Shown here piece by piece: positions 1,003-9,420 of a stretch of DNA of 13,459 nucleotides. The notes under the pieces are model-generated. The model was not told the DNA's origin, ran no database searches, and worked only from the letters and a program-made list of their open reading frames with translations. The stretch's first letter is position 1. Every line of letters begins with the position of its first letter. Source of the DNA: a virus (lineage: Duplodnaviria; Heunggongvirae; Uroviricota; Caudoviricetes); the IMG/VR virus record IMGVR_UViG_2579778974_000005; one strand, 5' to 3'. The position numbers and the translations under genes were made by a program.

Positions 1003-1172
1003 AACCGCAGCACGTTCCTGTATACGACGTGTCTGCGGCATAATCCCAATGATTACTCCCTGACAGGATTTGCAGGCCACTCAATATCAGGTGCAGTTGA
1101 TGTATCAACACGATTCAACAATACCCGATATTTATTCCATGCCTCCAGCAACGATCTTTCTTCCTCCGTTGC
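1003..1172. repeat. Left copy of a ~170-bp diverged direct repeat (tfa 3' end plus downstream hairpin)
   Basis: Aligns by eye with 2053..2221 in the same orientation, with scattered mismatches and a 1-nt length difference; roughly 85-90% identity, not computed. Confidence 0.8.
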
Positions 1173-1322
1173 GATTTCCAGATCTACAGCATCCTGCAGT
1201 GGCGCAATATACTCACTGAATTCCTGGATGTAGAACTGTGTGGTGACGGTCTTCCAGCCATTCGGCTCCTGCTGTATCGAAGCATACCAGGCTATTTCAA
1301 TATCGCTATGCTGCGGCAGCAT
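1053..1322 (-). CDS. tfa: Tail fibre assembly protein-like (Tfa C-terminal domain; short 89-aa form with a different N-terminus)
   Basis: C-terminus ..[51 protein letters not shown] matches the conserved C-terminal segment of lambda-type Tfa as I recall it. ATG at 1320..1322 preceded by AAGGGG. The N-terminal ~35 aa are unrelated to lambda Tfa. Confidence 0.65.
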
Positions 1323-1378: not shown

Positions 1379-2047
1379 ATGGTGAAATTAATGAAAAAAA
1401 ACACAGATGATGGGGCTAAAATTTACACACCACTTACCCTAAAGCTTTATGACTGGTGGGTTTTGGGAGTATCAAATTGGCTTGCATGGGGATGTCCTAC
1501 AAAGGAACACCTTCTTCCACACTTTCTGGAACATTTAGGTAACAACCATCTGGATATTGGTGTTGGAACTGGGTTTTACCTTACTCACGTACCTGAGAGT
1601 AGTCTGATATCTTTAATGGATTTGAACGAAGCTAGCCTGAACGCGGCATCTACAAGGGCTGGGGAATCAAAAATTAAACATAAAATTAGCCATGATGTTT
1701 TTGAACCTTATCCCGCGGCGTTACATGGTCAATTTGATTCCATTTCCATGTTTTACCTTCTTCACTGCCTGCCTGGAAATATAACTACAAAAAGCTGTGT
1801 AATACGCAATGCGGCGCAGGCCTTAACTGACGATGGAACTCTATACGGAGCCACAATTCTTGGCGATGGAGTTGTGCACAATAGCTTCGGTCAAAAACTG
1901 ATGCGCATTTACAATCAGAAAGGCATCTTTTCAAACACAAAAGATTCCGAAGAAGGCTTAACACATATACTCTCAGAGCATTTCGAGAATGTTAAAACCA
2001 AGGTTCAAGGTACTGTAGTAATGTTTTCCGCTTCAGGGAAAAAATAG
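1379..2047 (+). CDS. Class I SAM-dependent methyltransferase (222 aa; possible alternative start at ATG 1391)
   Basis: Complete ORF with the glycine-rich SAM-binding motif I DIGVGTGFY, preceded by a YDWW segment as in small Rossmann-fold methyltransferases. Visibly more AT-rich than the flanking tail genes. Opposite orientation to the flanking tfa fragments; I recall the same arrangement in E. coli K-12 prophage DLP12 (tfaD-ybcY-tfaX) but did not verify homology. Confidence 0.8.
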   Translation: MVKLMKKNTDDGAKIYTPLTLKLYDWWVLGVSNWLAWGCPTKEHLLPHFLEHLGNNHLDIGVGTGFYLTHVPESSLISLMDLNEASLNAASTRAGESKIKHKISHDVFEPYPAALHGQFDSISMFYLLHCLPGNITTKSCVIRNAAQALTDDGTLYGATILGDGVVHNSFGQKLMRIYNQKGIFSNTKDSEEGLTHILSEHFENVKTKVQGTVVMFSASGKK

Positions 2048-2052
2048 CATCC

Positions 2053-2221
2053 AACCGCAGCACGTTCTTGCTTAAGACGTGCTGCGGCATAATCCCAATG
2101 ATTACTCCCTGACAGAGTTCGTAGGCCACTCAATATCAGGTGCAGTTGATGTATCAACACGGTTCAGCAACACCCGATACTTTTTCCAGGCTTCCAGCAA
2201 CGAGTTTTCTTCCTCCGTTGC
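2053..2221. repeat. Right copy of the ~170-bp diverged direct repeat (tfa 3' end plus downstream hairpin)
   Basis: Partner of 1003..1172. Confidence 0.8.
2055..2087. terminator. Perfect 11-bp stem hairpin at the convergence of the methyltransferase gene and the tfa remnant; possible bidirectional terminator
   Basis: CCGCAGCACGT (2055..2065), 11-nt loop, ACGTGCTGCGG (2077..2087). No strong U-tract on either strand. An imperfect copy sits at 1005..1038. Confidence 0.35.
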
Positions 2222-2230
2222 ATATACAGC
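2102..2230 (-). pseudogene. tfa 3' remnant (last ~42 codons of a tail fibre assembly gene, no ATG)
   Basis: Minus-strand stop-to-stop frame translates to [42 protein letters not shown], bounded upstream by an in-frame TGA at 2231..2233. Absent from the ORF track because it is too short. Confidence 0.5.
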
Positions 2231-2240
2231 TCACCTTTTT

Positions 2241-2534
2241 TCACCCACGATTAACCAACAGCCAGACCAGCAGACACGCCACCACCGGCACAGCAAAATC
2301 CATCAGGCTTGCCACATCCCATGCACGTGTATCAAAACCGCCCCACCACGGCATATTCATTCGCTTGCCATGCCCGAACATTTCGATCCAGCGATATTCT
2401 GCCTGGGTGTGTTCACGCGCAATGAAGAACGTACAACCGGCTATCGCCCCGTAAGCCCAGTTCCCGGTAAAAAGACCAATCAGTAGCTGCGCAGCCACAG
2501 CACAAAGCGCATGAAGGAAAGGTGTTATATCCAT
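2241..2534 (-). CDS. Small membrane protein (97 aa, two predicted hydrophobic helices), function unknown
   Basis: ATG at 2532..2534 with AGGAGG 5 nt upstream, 10 nt after the stop of the preceding gene. Hydrophobic stretches FLHALCAVAAQLLIGLF..AIAGCTFFIA and LMDFAVPVVACLLVWLLV. Confidence 0.6.
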   Translation of the reverse strand: MDITPFLHALCAVAAQLLIGLFTGNWAYGAIAGCTFFIAREHTQAEYRWIEMFGHGKRMNMPWWGGFDTRAWDVASLMDFAVPVVACLLVWLLVNRG

Positions 2535-2544
2535 TACTCCTCCT

Positions 2545-3249
2545 TTATCCGATATCGCTTCGGGAAACGGATAACAACTTTAATTCTGACTCAAGTTCAT
2601 CAACTCTTTCAGTCAGCTTCTGGATATGGTGAATCAGTGGAACAACCAGACGTTCGTACATTACACCTTCGGCAACAAGGCCATTGCTGGAAATAGCTTC
2701 AGGAGCATCATCTTCGTTAGCTGGTCGCCAGTGTACAAACTGAGGGGCAATTTCTCCTACTTCCTCGGCAATCAATCCGTAGAATCCCCAGTCACGCCTG
2801 TCATTTTCGCATTGCGACCTGTACCACACAGGGCGCATCCTGAAAATGAGATCGGCGTGCTCTGAATCTATCGTCTCTACTGAATGTTTATAGCGAATAG
2901 ACGATGTTGACCGCAGTACAGACGAAATTGCAGGGTCAGGATTAAGATAAAGGTTTGCCGCCGCTGTAGTCGTGCCCAATCCCCACATATAAAACGCTTC
3001 ACGGCCAGTCAACGGGTAAAAATCTCCACCATAACGACCGCTTTCCAGATCGTTCACTTCCAGTTTGTTTTTCAGCTTATTATCAACTTCAGTTTTTGTG
3101 TATCTGGTGCTGATATCCTGCTTTGCACTGGTCATATCAGTCTGAAGCGTTGATACTTTTCCGTTAATTGAGGAAATATCTTCCTTAGTTTTACTGACAT
3201 CTCCCTTTAGCGTGGTGATATCTCCTGGAATTACTGTCGATGTAGCCAT
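2545..3249 (-). CDS. Short fibre-like protein: N-terminal coiled-coil plus C-terminal intramolecular chaperone (peptidase S74-type) domain (234 aa)
   Basis: ATG at 3247..3249 with GAGGGAG upstream. C-terminal region SSIRYKHSVETID..LIFRMRPVWY..WGFYGLIAEEVGEIAPQFV..GLVAEGVMYERLVVPLIHHIQKLTERVDELESELK fits the pattern of the tail fibre / endosialidase intramolecular chaperone domain as I recall it. Confidence 0.65.
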   Translation of the reverse strand: MATSTVIPGDITTLKGDVSKTKEDISSINGKVSTLQTDMTSAKQDISTRYTKTEVDNKLKNKLEVNDLESGRYGGDFYPLTGREAFYMWGLGTTTAAANLYLNPDPAISSVLRSTSSIRYKHSVETIDSEHADLIFRMRPVWYRSQCENDRRDWGFYGLIAEEVGEIAPQFVHWRPANEDDAPEAISSNGLVAEGVMYERLVVPLIHHIQKLTERVDELESELKLLSVSRSDIG

Positions 3250-3258
3250 TTGTCTCCC

Positions 3259-3540
3259 TCACATCCAGCCACGAAGTTGATGCTCAACAACAACCGCGTA
3301 TTTATCGAATATTGACGATTTTTTTACATCATTAATGATGCGCACGTTTACAAAATATCCGTCTTCCTTAACACATACCGGTTCGCCATCTTCAGTCAGT
3401 TCTCCGGTTTCTTTGTACACGTTACCTATCACGTCAATAAGAATATCATCCTGCATCGACTCGTCATCATAATAGCCAATACTCTCCATAAAGGCCGAAA
3501 AGTCGGCCCTGTCTGCAAATTTGAGTGTTAAATCTTTCAT
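3259..3540 (-). CDS. Small acidic hypothetical protein (93 aa); possible fibre chaperone or accessory factor
   Basis: ATG at 3538..3540 overlaps the stf stop (ATGA overlap), with a GGGGAGAG SD inside the stf 3' end. No recognisable family. Confidence 0.55.
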   Translation of the reverse strand: MKDLTLKFADRADFSAFMESIGYYDDESMQDDILIDVIGNVYKETGELTEDGEPVCVKEDGYFVNVRIINDVKKSSIFDKYAVVVEHQLRGWM

Positions 3541-5882
3541 TTAATACTCTCCCCCATTTGCGCATCAGTTAATTCTTTATGCCAGATACGCAGATTACGG
3601 ATATGACCAAAAAGATGATACTCCCCATTAGTGCCCTGCCCTCCAATTCGCAATACTGCCCGTGGAACAATTGAAGTCCATGTTGTTTTTGCCGCAACAG
3701 ATAATTCACCATTACATACGGCCTGAACATCTCCATCAGCGCCACAACGGAAGCCTGAAATGATTTTCCTCTGGGTTGTTGCCACATATTTATTACACCC
3801 TCCCATAGAAATAAAAGGAGAACCGGCATCAGAGAAATTATTACCACGGAATCCATGCGTGAACAGACCATTTTCCTGATAATCTTTAACATTAAAGATT
3901 AATGGTGATTTGCTGGGAGGGATATCCCAGTTTTTATTAACTTCAACAAGAGCACTGAATGGTAATCGGTGAATATTGTTTCTTACAGGTATTGTCACCA
4001 TGTCGCTGGAGCGAGTGCCAGGAGCCCCTTCAGTAATGATAAATGACGTCCTGTACGACCCAATCTCCGCCTGAGGCATCGCAATATCTAACGTAGAGCC
4101 ATTGGGGATAATACTGATTCCAGGCATCGCCAGGATTTCAAATCTTGAGCTGATTATCATTTCCGCATCTGCAAAAAGAGTGGCGGTAAACAACCACCAT
4201 TCACCGACTCTTTCTGCCGTCACCGTCACATTATTTCCATGAACAACATTTCCCGTAACAGGATCCAGAACTGCATCTGAATGAAAAACAAACGCACCAT
4301 TATCAGACATTTTTCCGAACCTTGCACGACACCGGGAATTATCACTTTTCGTCAGACACGATATCGTCGTATAAGAACCTGCCGGGCAGGTGTAAGCATC
4401 ATTCGTGTTTACAGCAATTGCCTGATATCCTTGTGCTGTCGGATTTTCATTAATAACAGTTATCCTTCCATAGTTAAACCCCTTATCACTGTCGAACGAC
4501 TCAACAGACACACTACCCGTGTTATTCCATGCTTCTGGTGTATTTGAATTTCTGAAATAGTTTGTTCTCTGTCCTTCAATCAGCAAACCTTCTCGTTCAA
4601 ATCGCGGTTCGTCAACTTCAGCAACGGTTAATACACCTGATTTATTAATGTATGTTGCACCTGATGCGCGTTTGAAGCTAACAACCTTATCGGATGGCAT
4701 TTTAATAACATCATCACCTACGGTTATTTGCTTATAACCAGGCGAAAAGCCAGCAAGCATATCCAGTGAATCGTTAAACGGTATCCACACATCAGGCAGT
4801 GGCTGTAAGACATATTTATACGGCTCTGCTGCCTGGCTTGCATACTCTCTGGCTGCATCCTCACTTGCTTTAGCTGCTGTCTGGCTTGCTGCCGATGCTT
4901 GCGCCGAGTTCGCCGCTGCAGTCTCGCTTGTCTTTGCATTGGTTTCACTGGTTTTTGCAGCTTTTTGACTGTTTGCTGATGCAGTGGCAGAAGCAGCCGC
5001 CGCACTTGCAGAACCAGCTGCAGCACTCTCGCTTTCGGCTGCTGCATCCTGACTGCTTTTCGCCGCAGTTTCGCTGGCTTTGGCATTTGTTTCGCTGGTC
5101 TTCGCTGCCGTCTGGCTGGACTTTGCGTTAGTTTCGCTCGTCTTCGCTGCTTTCTGGCTGTTAGCCGCAGCAGTTGCTGATCCAGCTGCTGCAGTCGCAG
5201 AACCGGCTGCCGCGCTCTCGCTTTCGGCTGCTGCATTCTGGCTATTTTTCGCCGCAGTTTCACTGGCTTTGGCATTCGTTTCGCTGGTTTTCGCTGCCGT
5301 CTGGCTGGACTTTGCGTTGGTTTCGCTCGTCTTTGCGGCTGTCTCGCTGTTTTTCGCGTTGGTTTCTGATTTTTTGGCTGCTGTCGCGGAGTTTGCCGAT
5401 GCAGTCTGCGAGGACGCTGCCGCCTGTGCGCTGTTAGCTGCATTCGTTTCTGAGGTTTTCGCCGCGTTCTTCGATGATGCCGCTGCAGTTTCGGATTTCT
5501 TTGCCGCCGCTGCGCTCTGAGAGGCGGCTTCGGCGTTGCGTGCCGCTTCTTCCACCATTGCCTCAAAACGACGCAATGCCTCCGGCATGACATCATCTTC
5601 CGTCATGGCACCGAGAAAATCATTCAGCGTACCTGGTCTGGAACCTTCATAGACGGTAATGGTTCCGGCATGTGAAGGCGGAAAACCTTCAACCAGCAGG
5701 GTGACGCTGTACTGGCCATGCTCAACATCCATGCTGTAACGCCCGGCTTCATCCGGATTTTCAGAGGCCACCGTGTTCACCAGTACCGTGGTGCTGTTAC
5801 GCTTTGCCTTCAGTTGAATAGTGCAGTTCTGTATTGGTTTTCCCGCACCATCTTTCAGCACACCTGAAATCTGTACTGCCAT
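3537..5882 (-). CDS. stf: Side tail fibre protein (Stf-like; 781 aa from the ATG at 5880..5882)
   Basis: N-terminus MAVQISGVLKDGAGKPIQNCTIQLKA..GRYSMDVE..FPPSHAGTITVYE matches the lambda Stf N-terminal domain from memory. It is followed by a long Ala/Ser/Thr-rich repetitive shaft and a distinct C-terminal region ending in a LamG/concanavalin-like motif (..RIGGQGTNGEYHLFGHIRNLRIWHKELTDAQM). GGAG SD before the ATG; the track's upstream GTG start is less likely. Confidence 0.85.
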   Translation of the reverse strand: MAVQISGVLKDGAGKPIQNCTIQLKAKRNSTTVLVNTVASENPDEAGRYSMDVEHGQYSVTLLVEGFPPSHAGTITVYEGSRPGTLNDFLGAMTEDDVMPEALRRFEAMVEEAARNAEAASQSAAAAKKSETAAASSKNAAKTSETNAANSAQAAASSQTASANSATAAKKSETNAKNSETAAKTSETNAKSSQTAAKTSETNAKASETAAKNSQNAAAESESAAAGSATAAAGSATAAANSQKAAKTSETNAKSSQTAAKTSETNAKASETAAKSSQDAAAESESAAAGSASAAAASATASANSQKAAKTSETNAKTSETAAANSAQASAASQTAAKASEDAAREYASQAAEPYKYVLQPLPDVWIPFNDSLDMLAGFSPGYKQITVGDDVIKMPSDKVVSFKRASGATYINKSGVLTVAEVDEPRFEREGLLIEGQRTNYFRNSNTPEAWNNTGSVSVESFDSDKGFNYGRITVINENPTAQGYQAIAVNTNDAYTCPAGSYTTISCLTKSDNSRCRARFGKMSDNGAFVFHSDAVLDPVTGNVVHGNNVTVTAERVGEWWLFTATLFADAEMIISSRFEILAMPGISIIPNGSTLDIAMPQAEIGSYRTSFIITEGAPGTRSSDMVTIPVRNNIHRLPFSALVEVNKNWDIPPSKSPLIFNVKDYQENGLFTHGFRGNNFSDAGSPFISMGGCNKYVATTQRKIISGFRCGADGDVQAVCNGELSVAAKTTWTSIVPRAVLRIGGQGTNGEYHLFGHIRNLRIWHKELTDAQMGESIK
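4850..5430. repeat. Tandem coding repeats (~189-bp unit, about 2.5-3 copies) in the stf shaft
   Basis: Near-identical blocks starting near 5041 and 5230, with a related copy near 4860-5040. Protein repeat ..KAAKTSETNAKSSQTAAKTSETNAKASETAAK.S..AAAESESAAAGSA.. seen twice. Confidence 0.8.
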
Positions 5883-5893
5883 ATTCACTCCAC

Positions 5894-5921
5894 AAATAAA
5901 AAAGGCGCCATTTCTGGCGCC
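5894..5921 (-). terminator. Rho-independent terminator downstream of J, immediately upstream of the stf ribosome-binding site
   Basis: On the minus strand: GGCGCCA-GAAA-TGGCGCC stem-loop (plus 5904..5921) followed by TTTTTTATTT (plus 5894..5903), about 20 nt after the J stop. Confidence 0.6.
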
Positions 5922-5940
5922 CGTATCTGGGTTATAAAAT

Positions 5941-8900
5941 TCAGCTAATCATGATGCCTGCAGTGGCTTTCTTCATCACCACAACCAGCAAATCGCTGAT
6001 ACTTGCTGTGGGATACCAGCCATTTACCAGCCATGCCGATACAGAAAATTCCAGTGTCATTACACCACTGCCTGCAGGCATATCAATAACACCCGTATAT
6101 ATCAGCGTATTATCCAGAGCCGTTCGGTTATAAATTTCAGCACCGTTTTTTCGTACTATCAGACGGCATGAGGAGTAGATATCAGTATGATCTTGCTCAT
6201 GTTTAGCGCCACTGAATGCCACCGCCGGAATAACAATTTGCCGGTCAAACGGCTGATCGTCATAAACCCTGACGGTAATGGTCCCTGATGGCCACCGCTC
6301 CGGTGCACGGGAGTCCCGGGGGAAAGCTTTGCCCACTGTTTTAACGAGATCGCCTTCAATCTGGTTCGCGGACAGTTTTCCCAGAACCCGGCAGTTCTCG
6401 TTAATCGTGACGTTGTTGAGCGTCCCGGAGTTCGCATTCACGTTACCGCTAATATCGGCATTTTTCGCCGTCAGCCGCCCGTCCGGTGTCAGGGAAAATG
6501 CCGGAGGATTACCGCCGCTGGTAATGGTGGGAGCCGTCAGATATTTCAGGAACACTTCGTTCATGAATATCTGATCGCCCTGACCAACAAACATCGGCTT
6601 TGTGTTGCCATTCGCAGGATTAATCATCGCAATCCTGTCCGCCGCCAGCAGCACCTGACTCTGCATACCGTCAGGGGTATTCTCAATACCGGCACCAATA
6701 CCCGCGATATAAAGGCGTCCGTCCTGCATCTGCTGCAGCTTCACAGCCCACATGCTGTTCAGGTTATTATTTGTATCAACCTGAACCTTCTGTATCTGCT
6801 GGATTGCCGCACTCTGGTCTTCCAGTTTCTTATTGACGGTCTGCGTGATTTCATTACTGACATCCGTGATGGACGTTCTGATTTCCGCCAGGTCAGGCGC
6901 AAGCTGACCGTTATCAATCTGCGTCCACAACTCCTGAGCCAGATGGGTTTTCCCTATCTCTCCTTTGAAAAAATTCAGATAGCCGGATGCATCATCACTC
7001 GGCTGGCCAACAGCCTCCACGAATGCCGATTTGCCAACGGTGTTCACACTGCGGATGTAAAAATAATAATCATGGCCCGGTTTGATATTGATACTGGCGG
7101 CTATCCAGTACAGCGCCGTGCCAAGATAGCGTGCTGTGGTTTCAACCTGCCTGATATCCGCAATCCGCTTTTCCGAGAACCAGAACTCAAACTGTACCGT
7201 CGGATCATAAACCGCAAGATGCGGCGTGGCGGTTATCTGAAAATACCCCGGTGTCAGCTCAATCTGCGACGGCGCTGCCGGTGCGGCAATCCGGAACGAT
7301 ACCGACGCCGGCTCGCCCTGCTGCCCCCACGCATTTACTGCCCGGACTGTCAGCCTGTAGTTCCCCAGAGCCAGTTGTGTGAAGCGGTAAGTGGTTTCCG
7401 TCGTCCGGGCCGTGCTGACCAGTCGCTCACGGCCGTCATCCGCTGCCACGGTCAGGCGAAGCAGGAAGCTCACGCCCTTCACCACCTTCGGCGTGTCCCA
7501 GCGGGCCAGCACCTGGTATTCCCCGCTGTCTGCGGTGACTTCTGCGGTCAGGTGCTGCACCGCTGGCGGCGTGACACCATTTACCGTGCCGCTCTGGTCG
7601 CCGTCAAAGTGCGCCCCGTTATCCACGATGGCCTCTTTTTCCGGTACATGCTGCACGGCGGTGATGGCATACGTGCCGTCGTCGTTCTCACGGATACTCA
7701 CGCAGCGGAACAGGCGCTGGCGCAACGTCGGCAGCTTCAGCCCCCATACGCTGTATTCAGCAACGCCGTCAGGAACACGGCTCACTTTCACCTTCACGCC
7801 GTCGGTGACGGACTGAACCTCCACGCTGACCGGACTCCCCTGCCCGTCAACCAGGCTTATCAGCGTGGTGCCGGAAGATGGCAGCGTGATTTCACGGTCG
7901 AGCGTCAGCGTCCGGGTCTGGCTGTTTACCGCCAGCACGCGCCCGCCGGTGCGGATACCGGCATAGTCATCATCGCAGATTTCAATGACATCGCCCGGTA
8001 CATGGCGAAGCCCTTCGGCACCCACGCTGAAGTCCACGGTCTGCGTTTCCAGCAGCTCCGTTTTAATCAGCCACAGCCCGGCGCGGTGTGCCTGCCCCCG
8101 GCTGGTACAGCCAAAGGCATCCATCTTCGTGACGTTACGACCGTAACGGAGAATGGCCTGCGTATCTTCAACAAGCTCTGTCGCCGTCTCCCAGCCGTTG
8201 TCCGGGTCAATCCAGTTCACCTCAACGGCATTATGGCGGTCCTTCAGGGCGCTGAAGCTGTAGCGGAACGGCGCGCCATCATCCGGCATCACCACATTAC
8301 TGCGGTTATAGGTCCACACCTTATCTGATGGTCGGTCCTGCACGAACGTCAGCGTCTGCCCGTTCCATACCGGCATACAGCGCATCGCCGAGCAGAAATC
8401 ACTGAGCACATCCCACGCCTTACGCTGCGTGGTCAGGTAGGCATTACAGGTGATGCGCGGCTCCGTGCCGCCAAAACCGTCCGGCACTGACTGGTCGCAG
8501 TACTGGCCGATGACATACAGCGCCCATTTATCCACATCCGCCGCACCAAGACGTTTCCCCATGCCGTAGCGCGGGTGGGTCAGCATATCCCACAGACACC
8601 AGGCCGGGTTGTTGCTGTATGCCGGCTTAAACGTTCCGTCCCAGATACCGCTGTATTGCCGCGTCTGCGGGTTATAGTTCGACGGCACCTGCAGAATGCG
8701 CCCGCGAAGATGATAATTACGGCTCACCTGCTGGCTGCCGAACTGCTCCGAGTCCACCTGCACGCCGACCAGTGCCGTGTTCGGGTAGCACTGTTTCACA
8801 TCGATGATTTCGGTGTATGACGACCAGAGCGTTTTGTTCTGCAGCTGGTCTGTGGTGCTGTCCGGCGTCATCCTGCGCATCCGGATGTTGAACGGGCGCG

Positions 8901-9420
8901 GCGGCAGGTTATCCACCACCACCGAGGCCAGATACTGCGAGGTGGTTTTGCCTTTAATGGTGATGTCTTTTTCCGTCACCCAGCCACCGTTACGCTGTAT
9001 CTGAACCAGCAGGCGGACTTCCGACGGATTCCGGTCCCCCTTTGAGGTGGTTTCCACCAGTGCCTGCACACCGAAGGTCAAGCGCAGACGGTCGATGTTT
9101 GCAGACGTGATGGTCCGGGTAATCGGCGTGTCGTACTTCACTTCCGTACCCAGCACCGTCTCGGAGCCGGAGGATTCAAATCCCTCCGGCGGTGTCTGCT
9201 CCTGCTCACCTGCCCGGAACACCACCGTGACGCCGGAGATATTGGTATTCCCCTCACTGTCCAGCACTGGCGTACTGTTCAGCAGCACGCTTTTTAATCC
9301 ATCCACCGGACCTTCAATCGGCCCTTCGCTGATGGCATCAATCACACTCAGCAACTGCGTGGACTTCAGGTTGTCCTTCGCTTCGCGCGGGGTATGCCCC
9401 TTACTGCTGCCTTTACCCAT
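5941..9420 (-). CDS. J: Tail tip host-specificity protein J (central tail fibre), 1159 aa, with a C-terminal region that differs from lambda J
   Basis: N-terminal ~790 aa ([24 protein letters not shown]..) match lambda J as recalled. The C-terminal ~350 aa differ from the lambda LamB-binding end as recalled. Confidence 0.95.

Follow-up and report, generated by a model that had tools for sequence, protein, structure and literature searches.

An S74 chaperone-domain protein of a lambdoid Escherichia coli prophage as a probable minimal distal subunit of a three-gene tail-fibre module

The window analysed here is a 13,459-nucleotide stretch of viral DNA (IMG/VR record IMGVR_UViG_2579778974_000005, Caudoviricetes) that represents the tail end of a lambdoid Escherichia coli prophage, with its tail genes all on the minus strand. 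We examined one gene of this region, which encodes a 234-residue protein (hereafter the target) ending in an intramolecular-chaperone domain of the S74 type. The target is best read as a part of a multipart lateral fibre of a known kind and not as an orphan chaperone; more precisely, we assign a probability of about 0.65 to its being the minimal distal or branch subunit of a multicomponent side (lateral) tail fibre, and its gene would be the shortest of the common alleles at the third position of a fibre module. An earlier reading of the letters alone (the sequence-only reading) had described a stand-alone chaperone-domain protein and left three options, namely a miniature fibre, a trans-acting chaperone, or the surviving 3' part of a replaced fibre gene that had regained a start codon. 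Our analysis favours the miniature fibre, on the strength of the shared N-terminal anchor, the module context, the anatomy of stalk and tip, and the selection acting on the gene.

The target gene and its parts are as follows.

2545..3249, minus strand: target gene (234 residues), predicted distal (third) side-tail-fibre subunit; intact open reading frame (ORF), phrog_3299 (E 1.9e-140), PF13884
3254..3260, minus strand: Shine-Dalgarno sequence GAGGGAG, 4 nt upstream of the ATG, read from the sequence
3205..3249, minus strand: N-terminal anchor motif M.T.T.IP.DI..LK, codons 1-15, from the invariant positions among third-gene products
3058..3225, minus strand: coiled-coil stalk of eight heptads, its length varying among homologues, codons 9-64, from heptad counts and the AlphaFold2 helix
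2905..3039, minus strand: distal tip of fixed 45-residue length, codons 71-115, with LRST at its end before the cleavage site, from homologue spacing
2887..2904, minus strand: SSIRYK, codons 116-121, predicted cleavage site T115|S116 and Ser116/Lys121 dyad, from the alignment and the MyRF match
2548..2904, minus strand: intramolecular-chaperone (S74/ICA) domain, codons 116-234, with a long C-terminal helix at its end

The ATG of the target is the first start codon past the upstream stop, and its Shine-Dalgarno sequence overlaps the TGA stop (3259-3261) of the preceding gene, which encodes 93 residues. With a start codon and a Shine-Dalgarno site of its own, the target does occupy a separate ORF, as had been claimed. 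The possibility that it is the frameshifted end of the 783-residue fibre encoded upstream was considered and rejected, because the complete and conserved 93-residue gene sits between the two. No match of the target to PF02413 (Caudo_TAP) or to the tail-fibre-assembly PHROG families was found.

The assignment of the C-terminal half to the S74-like chaperone domain was borne out by both profile and fold. PF13884 (Peptidase_S74) matches residues 116 to 172 significantly (E 5e-6; 27.1 bits against a curated cut-off of 22) and covers positions 1 to 57 of the 58 in the profile. The AlphaFold2 monomer, computed from 24 homologues, is confident over residues ~120 to 232; it adopts the chaperone-domain fold with a predicted trimerising helix at the C terminus, and its fold matches are the chaperone domains of MyRF (ICA), endoNF, and GA-1. 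The best sequence match among solved structures is LtfA of the L-shaped fibre of phage DT57C (8hqz_d, E 1.6e-7), whereas T5 pb1 was recovered neither by sequence nor by fold, and a profile search of solved structures with the alignment added only DT57C LtfA.

At the domain boundary, S116, S117, and K121 are invariant in the 24-sequence alignment, which reaches long fibres at 31 to 35% identity. In the phmmer alignment to MyRF, T115, S116, R119, and K121 fall on P586, S587, R590, and K592, of which S587 is Ala in the crystallised mutant. MyRF is cut between P586 and S587, cleavage is abolished by S587A or K592A, and S587/K592 are equivalent to S911/K916 of endoNF (PMC8326128). Since S116 and K121 are both invariant and aligned with the proven dyad of MyRF, the Ser-Lys dyad proposed by the sequence-only reading is confirmed as far as sequence can confirm it, and the cut is predicted at T115|S116.

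That reading had also given the target a passenger of ~115 residues made of a short coiled coil. The length of 115 residues stands; the coiled coil is only part of the passenger, which also has an N-terminal motif and a 45-residue tip. Over the heptads, hydrophobic residues number 0, 1, 6, 0, 1, 5, and 1 at the seven positions and are thus concentrated at two of them, and the AlphaFold2 model places a helix at residues 11 to 47, with a mean predicted local distance difference test score (pLDDT) of 74 to 81 in 10-residue blocks over residues 11 to 40. In homologues the stalk ends at positions from residue 54 up to residue 96. The spacing of the tip is fixed: a G-x-Y-x-G-x-F motif at the stalk end lies exactly 45 residues from the catalytic Ser in all anchored homologues, and the second half of the tip (TTT..AN...LRSTSS) is kept even in distant long fibres. 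The tips of the lambdoid and T1-like versions are about 62% identical. No recognisable receptor-binding domain was found in the passenger. Long Mu/T4-like fibres of E. coli and E. albertii carry the whole tip-plus-chaperone unit at their C terminus too. In one long Mu/T4-like fibre, a 588-residue partial protein of E. coli, the last ~50 residues are those of the target and the tip is different; evidently, recombination exchanges chaperone modules between such long fibres and the mini-fibre.

A passenger of this size is uncommon for the domain. With the chaperone domain alone as the query, 2,203 cluster representatives were retrieved at E<=1e-3; among the best 150 of these, the domain starts mostly after residue 150 and as late as residue ~1160, and it starts before residue ~137 in ~17. 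Several of the short-passenger relatives are complete ORFs of 167 to 242 residues, although fragments may be among them. Of the nearest relatives, about one S74 protein in ten has a short passenger; proteins of this kind are a minority, and the target is not unique.

The target gene is the last of three genes with a constant layout: a proximal fibre gene, a 4-nt overlap, a gene of ~92 codons, a 9-nt gap, and the third gene. The two upstream genes in the window are as follows.

3537..5888, minus strand: proximal side-tail-fibre gene, 783 residues from a GTG; PF08400 phage_tail_N (E 5.9e-67), phrog_1419 (E 0)
3259..3540, minus strand: 93-residue partner gene, phrog_1361, overlapping the proximal fibre gene by 4 nt

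The true start of the proximal fibre gene is probably the ATG at 5882, and the identical gene in RefSeq is annotated 6 nt shorter. Its residues 436 to 627 match NF048003 (GTA_spike_fiber). The 93-residue protein matched no Pfam or NCBIfam family, and its AlphaFold2 model has a pLDDT of 45 from a shallow alignment in which all sequences are at least 85% identical. Homologues of the ~92-codon gene occur in 183 phage records of the lambdoid, T1-like, Dhillonvirus, Nonagvirus/Seuratvirus, T5-like, and rV5-like groups, and among the matches listed the gene directly follows a fibre gene. Phages of several groups share this layout, as set out below (lengths in residues; those of PhiR49_1, 2G7b, HMD-P4, and KarlBarth were derived from annotated coordinates).

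Window (lambdoid prophage): proximal fibre 783, small protein 93, third protein 234
PhiR49_1 (lambdoid): proximal fibre 812, small protein 93, third protein 234
PhiR63_1 (lambdoid): proximal fibre 790, small protein 93, third protein 346
2G7b (lambdoid): proximal fibre 791, small protein 93, third protein 345
PeterMerian (T1-like, Drexlerviridae): proximal fibre 655, small protein 92, third protein 231
IrisVonRoten (T5-like): proximal fibre 796, small protein 92, third protein 574
HMD-P4 (T5-like): proximal fibre 782, small protein 91, third protein 333
JenP2 (Nonagvirus): proximal fibre 688, small protein 92, third protein 348
KarlBarth (Dhillonvirus): proximal fibre 667, small protein 85, third position 98 + 196

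The 9-nt gap before the third gene recurs in PeterMerian, IrisVonRoten, PhiR63_1, JenP2, and HMD-P4. Across groups, identity is 37 to 43% in the C-terminal part of the proximal fibre and 38 to 47% in the ~92-residue protein. What the third-gene products share is their N terminus: seven of them, from five phage groups, are invariant at nine positions of M-x-T-x-T-x-I-P-x-D-I-x-x-L-K, and across these groups the N terminus is the most conserved part of the module. Past this motif the products are unrelated in sequence and range from 231 to 574 residues; those of 333 to 348 residues have a globular domain and the canonical SDRDLK chaperone motif. At the third position of KarlBarth (locus 4270-5149), two overlapping ORFs carry the shared N-terminal motif and have no chaperone domain; a frameshift or the annotation may have divided a single gene in two. 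The description "stand-alone" is therefore true of the ORF and fails for the function, because the gene belongs to a conserved module and shares its anchor with larger receptor-binding fibres.

Exchange of the third gene leaves sharp boundaries. At 80 prophage loci whose 93-residue gene is at least 91% identical to that of the window, the third gene is of either the 234-residue type or a 346-residue type with a ~225-residue passenger and the canonical SDRDLKDNI chaperone motif. DNA homology between the window and the prophages with the 346-residue allele runs from 3618 to 3206, that is, through the 93-residue gene region and the first 15 codons of the target, and resumes at 2535, in the start region of the 97-residue ORF downstream. 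Since homology stops after codon 15 and resumes there, the exchangeable cassette is 3205-2536 and is flanked on either side by a conserved arm. At its C terminus, the proximal fibre (last ~330 codons, 3537-4530) has alleles that are only 32 to 39% identical among prophages with a near-identical 93-residue gene; because such different alleles lie beside a near-identical gene, this domain appears, from the sequences compared, to behave as a second exchangeable receptor-binding cassette. No coupling of the third-gene allele with the proximal C-terminal allele was found in these prophages, as the 234-residue type occurs with proximal alleles that are 99 to 100% identical and with alleles that are 32 to 39% identical.

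The target gene is under purifying selection, as is its passenger, the stalk included. Among 21 distinct alleles, the ratio of nonsynonymous to synonymous polymorphism (pN/pS) was 0.18 for the whole gene; the passenger gave 0.22, its tip 0.15, and the chaperone domain 0.13. The full-length protein is found in 740 of 5,426 complete E. coli genomes, annotated as "tail fiber domain-containing protein", and virulent T1-like phages retain a homologue with 55 to 60% identity over the whole length.

By homology with characterised fibres and S74 proteins, the target would be made and matured as follows. Its translation, from the late tail operon, would follow immediately on that of the phage_tail_N-type proximal fibre and the 93-residue protein. 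Three chains would trimerise via the chaperone domain, which would act as the template for the trimeric fold of the coiled coil of eight heptads and of the 45-residue tip. The Ser116/Lys121 dyad would then cut at T115|S116 and release the chaperone, leaving a mature 115-residue trimer that consists of a coiled coil of ~7 to 8 nm (an estimate from eight heptads) and a small tip. This trimer would dock by the conserved N-terminal motif (MATSTVIPGDITTLK) onto the proximal fibre, possibly together with the 93-residue protein. In the virion, it would form the distal end or a branch of the fibre and present the tip to the cell surface, where it may bind a receptor.

Several described systems resemble this arrangement. 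IrisVonRoten Gp22/Gp23/Gp24 have an identical three-gene layout and spacing, a homologous proximal fibre (42.5% identity to Gp22 over residues 132 to 782 of the window protein) and a homologous ~92-residue protein (38 to 47%), and Gp24 opens with the same motif and ends in a chaperone domain. Gp24 is a 574-residue T-shaped fibre with two receptor-binding domains, modelled with AlphaFold-Multimer as attached to the proximal Gp22, and a galectin-like domain of Gp22 is proposed as an additional receptor-binding domain (10.1101/2024.09.12.612763). Unlike Gp24, the target has only a coiled coil and the 45-residue tip. The equivalent locus of PeterMerian (bas05_0031/0030/0029; Drexlerviridae of the BASEL collection) encodes as its third protein a true orthologue of the target, 56% identical over the full length. 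JakobBernoulli Gp36 and RuthEpting Gp29, compared here by description only, have an architecture of the same kind, as the same source describes a coiled coil at their N terminus, a T5-like tip, and a chaperone domain at their C terminus (10.1101/2024.09.12.612763); JakobBernoulli was not among the matches listed for homologues of the ~92-codon gene. The BASEL papers say nothing of what the small third gene or the ~92-codon gene does.

The target shares the S74/ICA fold, the Ser-x4-Lys dyad at the start of the domain, and the C-terminal trimerising helix with endoNF, T5 pb1, the GA-1 neck appendage, DT57C LtfA, and MyRF. The passengers of these proteins comprise hundreds of residues (beta-helix or fibre, and in MyRF a transcription factor), whereas that of the target has 115 residues and is mostly coiled coil; identity to the target is about 26% or less. 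In the branched fibre of DT57C, LtfB attaches through LtfA and not to the tail (PMC10713586), so that a second fibre protein is carried by the first, and LtfA is the best solved-structure match to the target; no ~92-codon gene or MAT..IP.DI motif was seen in the published description of DT57C, on which the comparison is based. The position downstream of J, the phage_tail_N-type N terminus, and the nature of an accessory fibre are shared with lambda Stf/Tfa. Lambda has a separate Tfa (Caudo_TAP) chaperone, whereas the window has only tfa relics, and its fibre end appears to be built from the 93-residue protein and a self-chaperoned distal subunit.

Several observations weigh against a distal, cell-facing role of the target. 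A tip of 45 residues is very small for a receptor-binding site, it is conserved with no sign of diversifying selection (pN/pS 0.15), and it lies within residues 58 to 113, where the AlphaFold2 monomer has low confidence. Pairing of the 234-residue type with two very different proximal alleles leaves no clue to a docking surface. The third subunit is dispensable for at least some fibres, and the gene is optional or was lost in the lineage of phage 21 (1944-4585) and ev017, because these keep the proximal fibre and the 92-codon gene with no third gene, the 97-residue membrane ORF following directly. The virion proteome of swan01 (PMC6563131) lists only five swan01 proteins, at least four of them head or tail proteins, and none of the fibre-module proteins SWAN_00002-4 appears; this list is too shallow to speak either way. 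Finally, the homologues of PeterMerian, KarlJaspers, VogelGryff, and HMD-P4 bear the BASEL label "putative lateral tail fiber chaperone". A tip so small and conserved might suit a structural cap or spacer, in which the cleaved 115-residue trimer only ends or stabilises the fibre and recognition is left to the proximal C-terminal domain. The last 330 residues of the proximal fibre are indeed its hypervariable part, and the galectin-like domain of IrisVonRoten Gp22, for which an additional receptor-binding role is proposed, is homologous to a part of the proximal fibre. We consider a cap plausible but less likely than the main reading, since the fibres of phage 21 and ev017 do without one and the tip-plus-chaperone unit is the extreme distal end of long fibres. 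In T5 pb1, the distal end is where binding occurs, and this analogy also speaks against a cap.

The same short passenger without a recognisable receptor-binding domain, the conserved and non-diversifying tip, the constant position beside a fibre gene, and the BASEL label could instead point to an assembly factor acting in trans and absent from the virion, whose S74 domain and coiled coil would help the proximal fibre or the 93-residue joint to fold. To our knowledge, every characterised S74/ICA domain acts on its own chain, and we know of no intramolecular-chaperone domain for which trans action has been described. Alleles at the same position with the same motif carry large receptor-binding domains (IrisVonRoten Gp24, the 346-residue allele), the KarlBarth allele lacks the chaperone domain entirely, phage 21 and ev017 keep a proximal fibre with no third gene, the target pairs freely with unrelated proximal C-terminal alleles, and the passenger, stalk included, is under purifying selection; moreover, a domain of the MyRF type folds and cleaves its own upstream stalk, i.e., in cis (PMC8326128). 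The trans-acting chaperone of the sequence-only reading is thus improbable, and a little more so if the target is to be a dedicated factor for assembling the joint between the proximal fibre and the 93-residue protein, or a sacrificial seed for its trimerisation. It seems more likely than such trans action that the ~15-residue motif and the ~92-residue protein are a universal plug-and-socket joint of at least five phage groups, with the target as its minimal natural cargo. As for a functionless relic, the 3' remainder of a replaced long fibre gene with an acquired start codon, the locus is mosaic, true relics lie near (the tfa fragments and a 140-nt repeat), and the tip-plus-chaperone unit is also found on long fibres. 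Against this stand the N terminus, the most conserved part of the module in five phage groups, the pN/pS of 0.18, the intact copies in 740 genomes, and retention in the compact genomes of virulent phages; on these grounds the relic is rejected as practically excluded.

If the target is the minimal distal subunit proposed here, few of the natural S74 chaperone substrates found would be smaller, and the protein would lend itself as a minimal system to studies of chaperone-templated trimer folding and self-cleavage. The joint, which comprises the end of the proximal fibre, the ~92-residue protein, and the 15-residue motif, could be a ready-made socket for exchanging receptor-binding cassettes; it is common to lambdoid, T1-like, T5-like, Nonagvirus, and Dhillonvirus phages and relevant to host-range engineering. 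The general understanding of tail fibres is unchanged, as genome comparisons and structure predictions had already revealed similar multipart fibres whose distal subunits bear a chaperone domain.

The remaining features of the region are as follows.

5941-9420, minus strand: J, upstream of the fibre genes and preceded by the tape-measure gene and then the M, L, K, and I genes
2241..2534, minus strand: 97-residue membrane-like ORF, phrog_1443, 10 nt downstream of the target, forming the downstream homology arm
1053-1322, minus strand: relic ORF with a C-terminal Caudo_TAP (tail fibre assembly) fragment, from a profile match

The 97-residue ORF, which matched no Pfam or NCBIfam family, may serve in lysogenic conversion or exclusion. 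PhiR63_1 has a 100% identical copy. The ORF follows the fibre module whichever third-gene allele is present; in phage 21, where it comes directly after the 92-codon gene, it is annotated as "putative membrane protein, 2 TMDs". Further downstream, a 140-nt direct repeat (1033-1172 and 2082-2221, 91% identity) flanks a ybcY-like SAM methyltransferase gene (1379-2047, plus strand). The other repeat copy carries an annotated tfa pseudogene in E. coli B REL606, and the repeat and the tfa fragments look like what is left, next to the present fibre module, of an older stf/tfa module of the lambda type. Positions 2200-6000 of the window are 100% identical to the DLP12-region prophage of REL606, whose copy of the 234-residue gene bears the PGAP name "tail fiber domain-containing protein". 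In E. coli EC24 (NZ_CP182191.1), which also matches at 100% identity, an IS3-family element lies inside the stretch that corresponds to 2200-6000.

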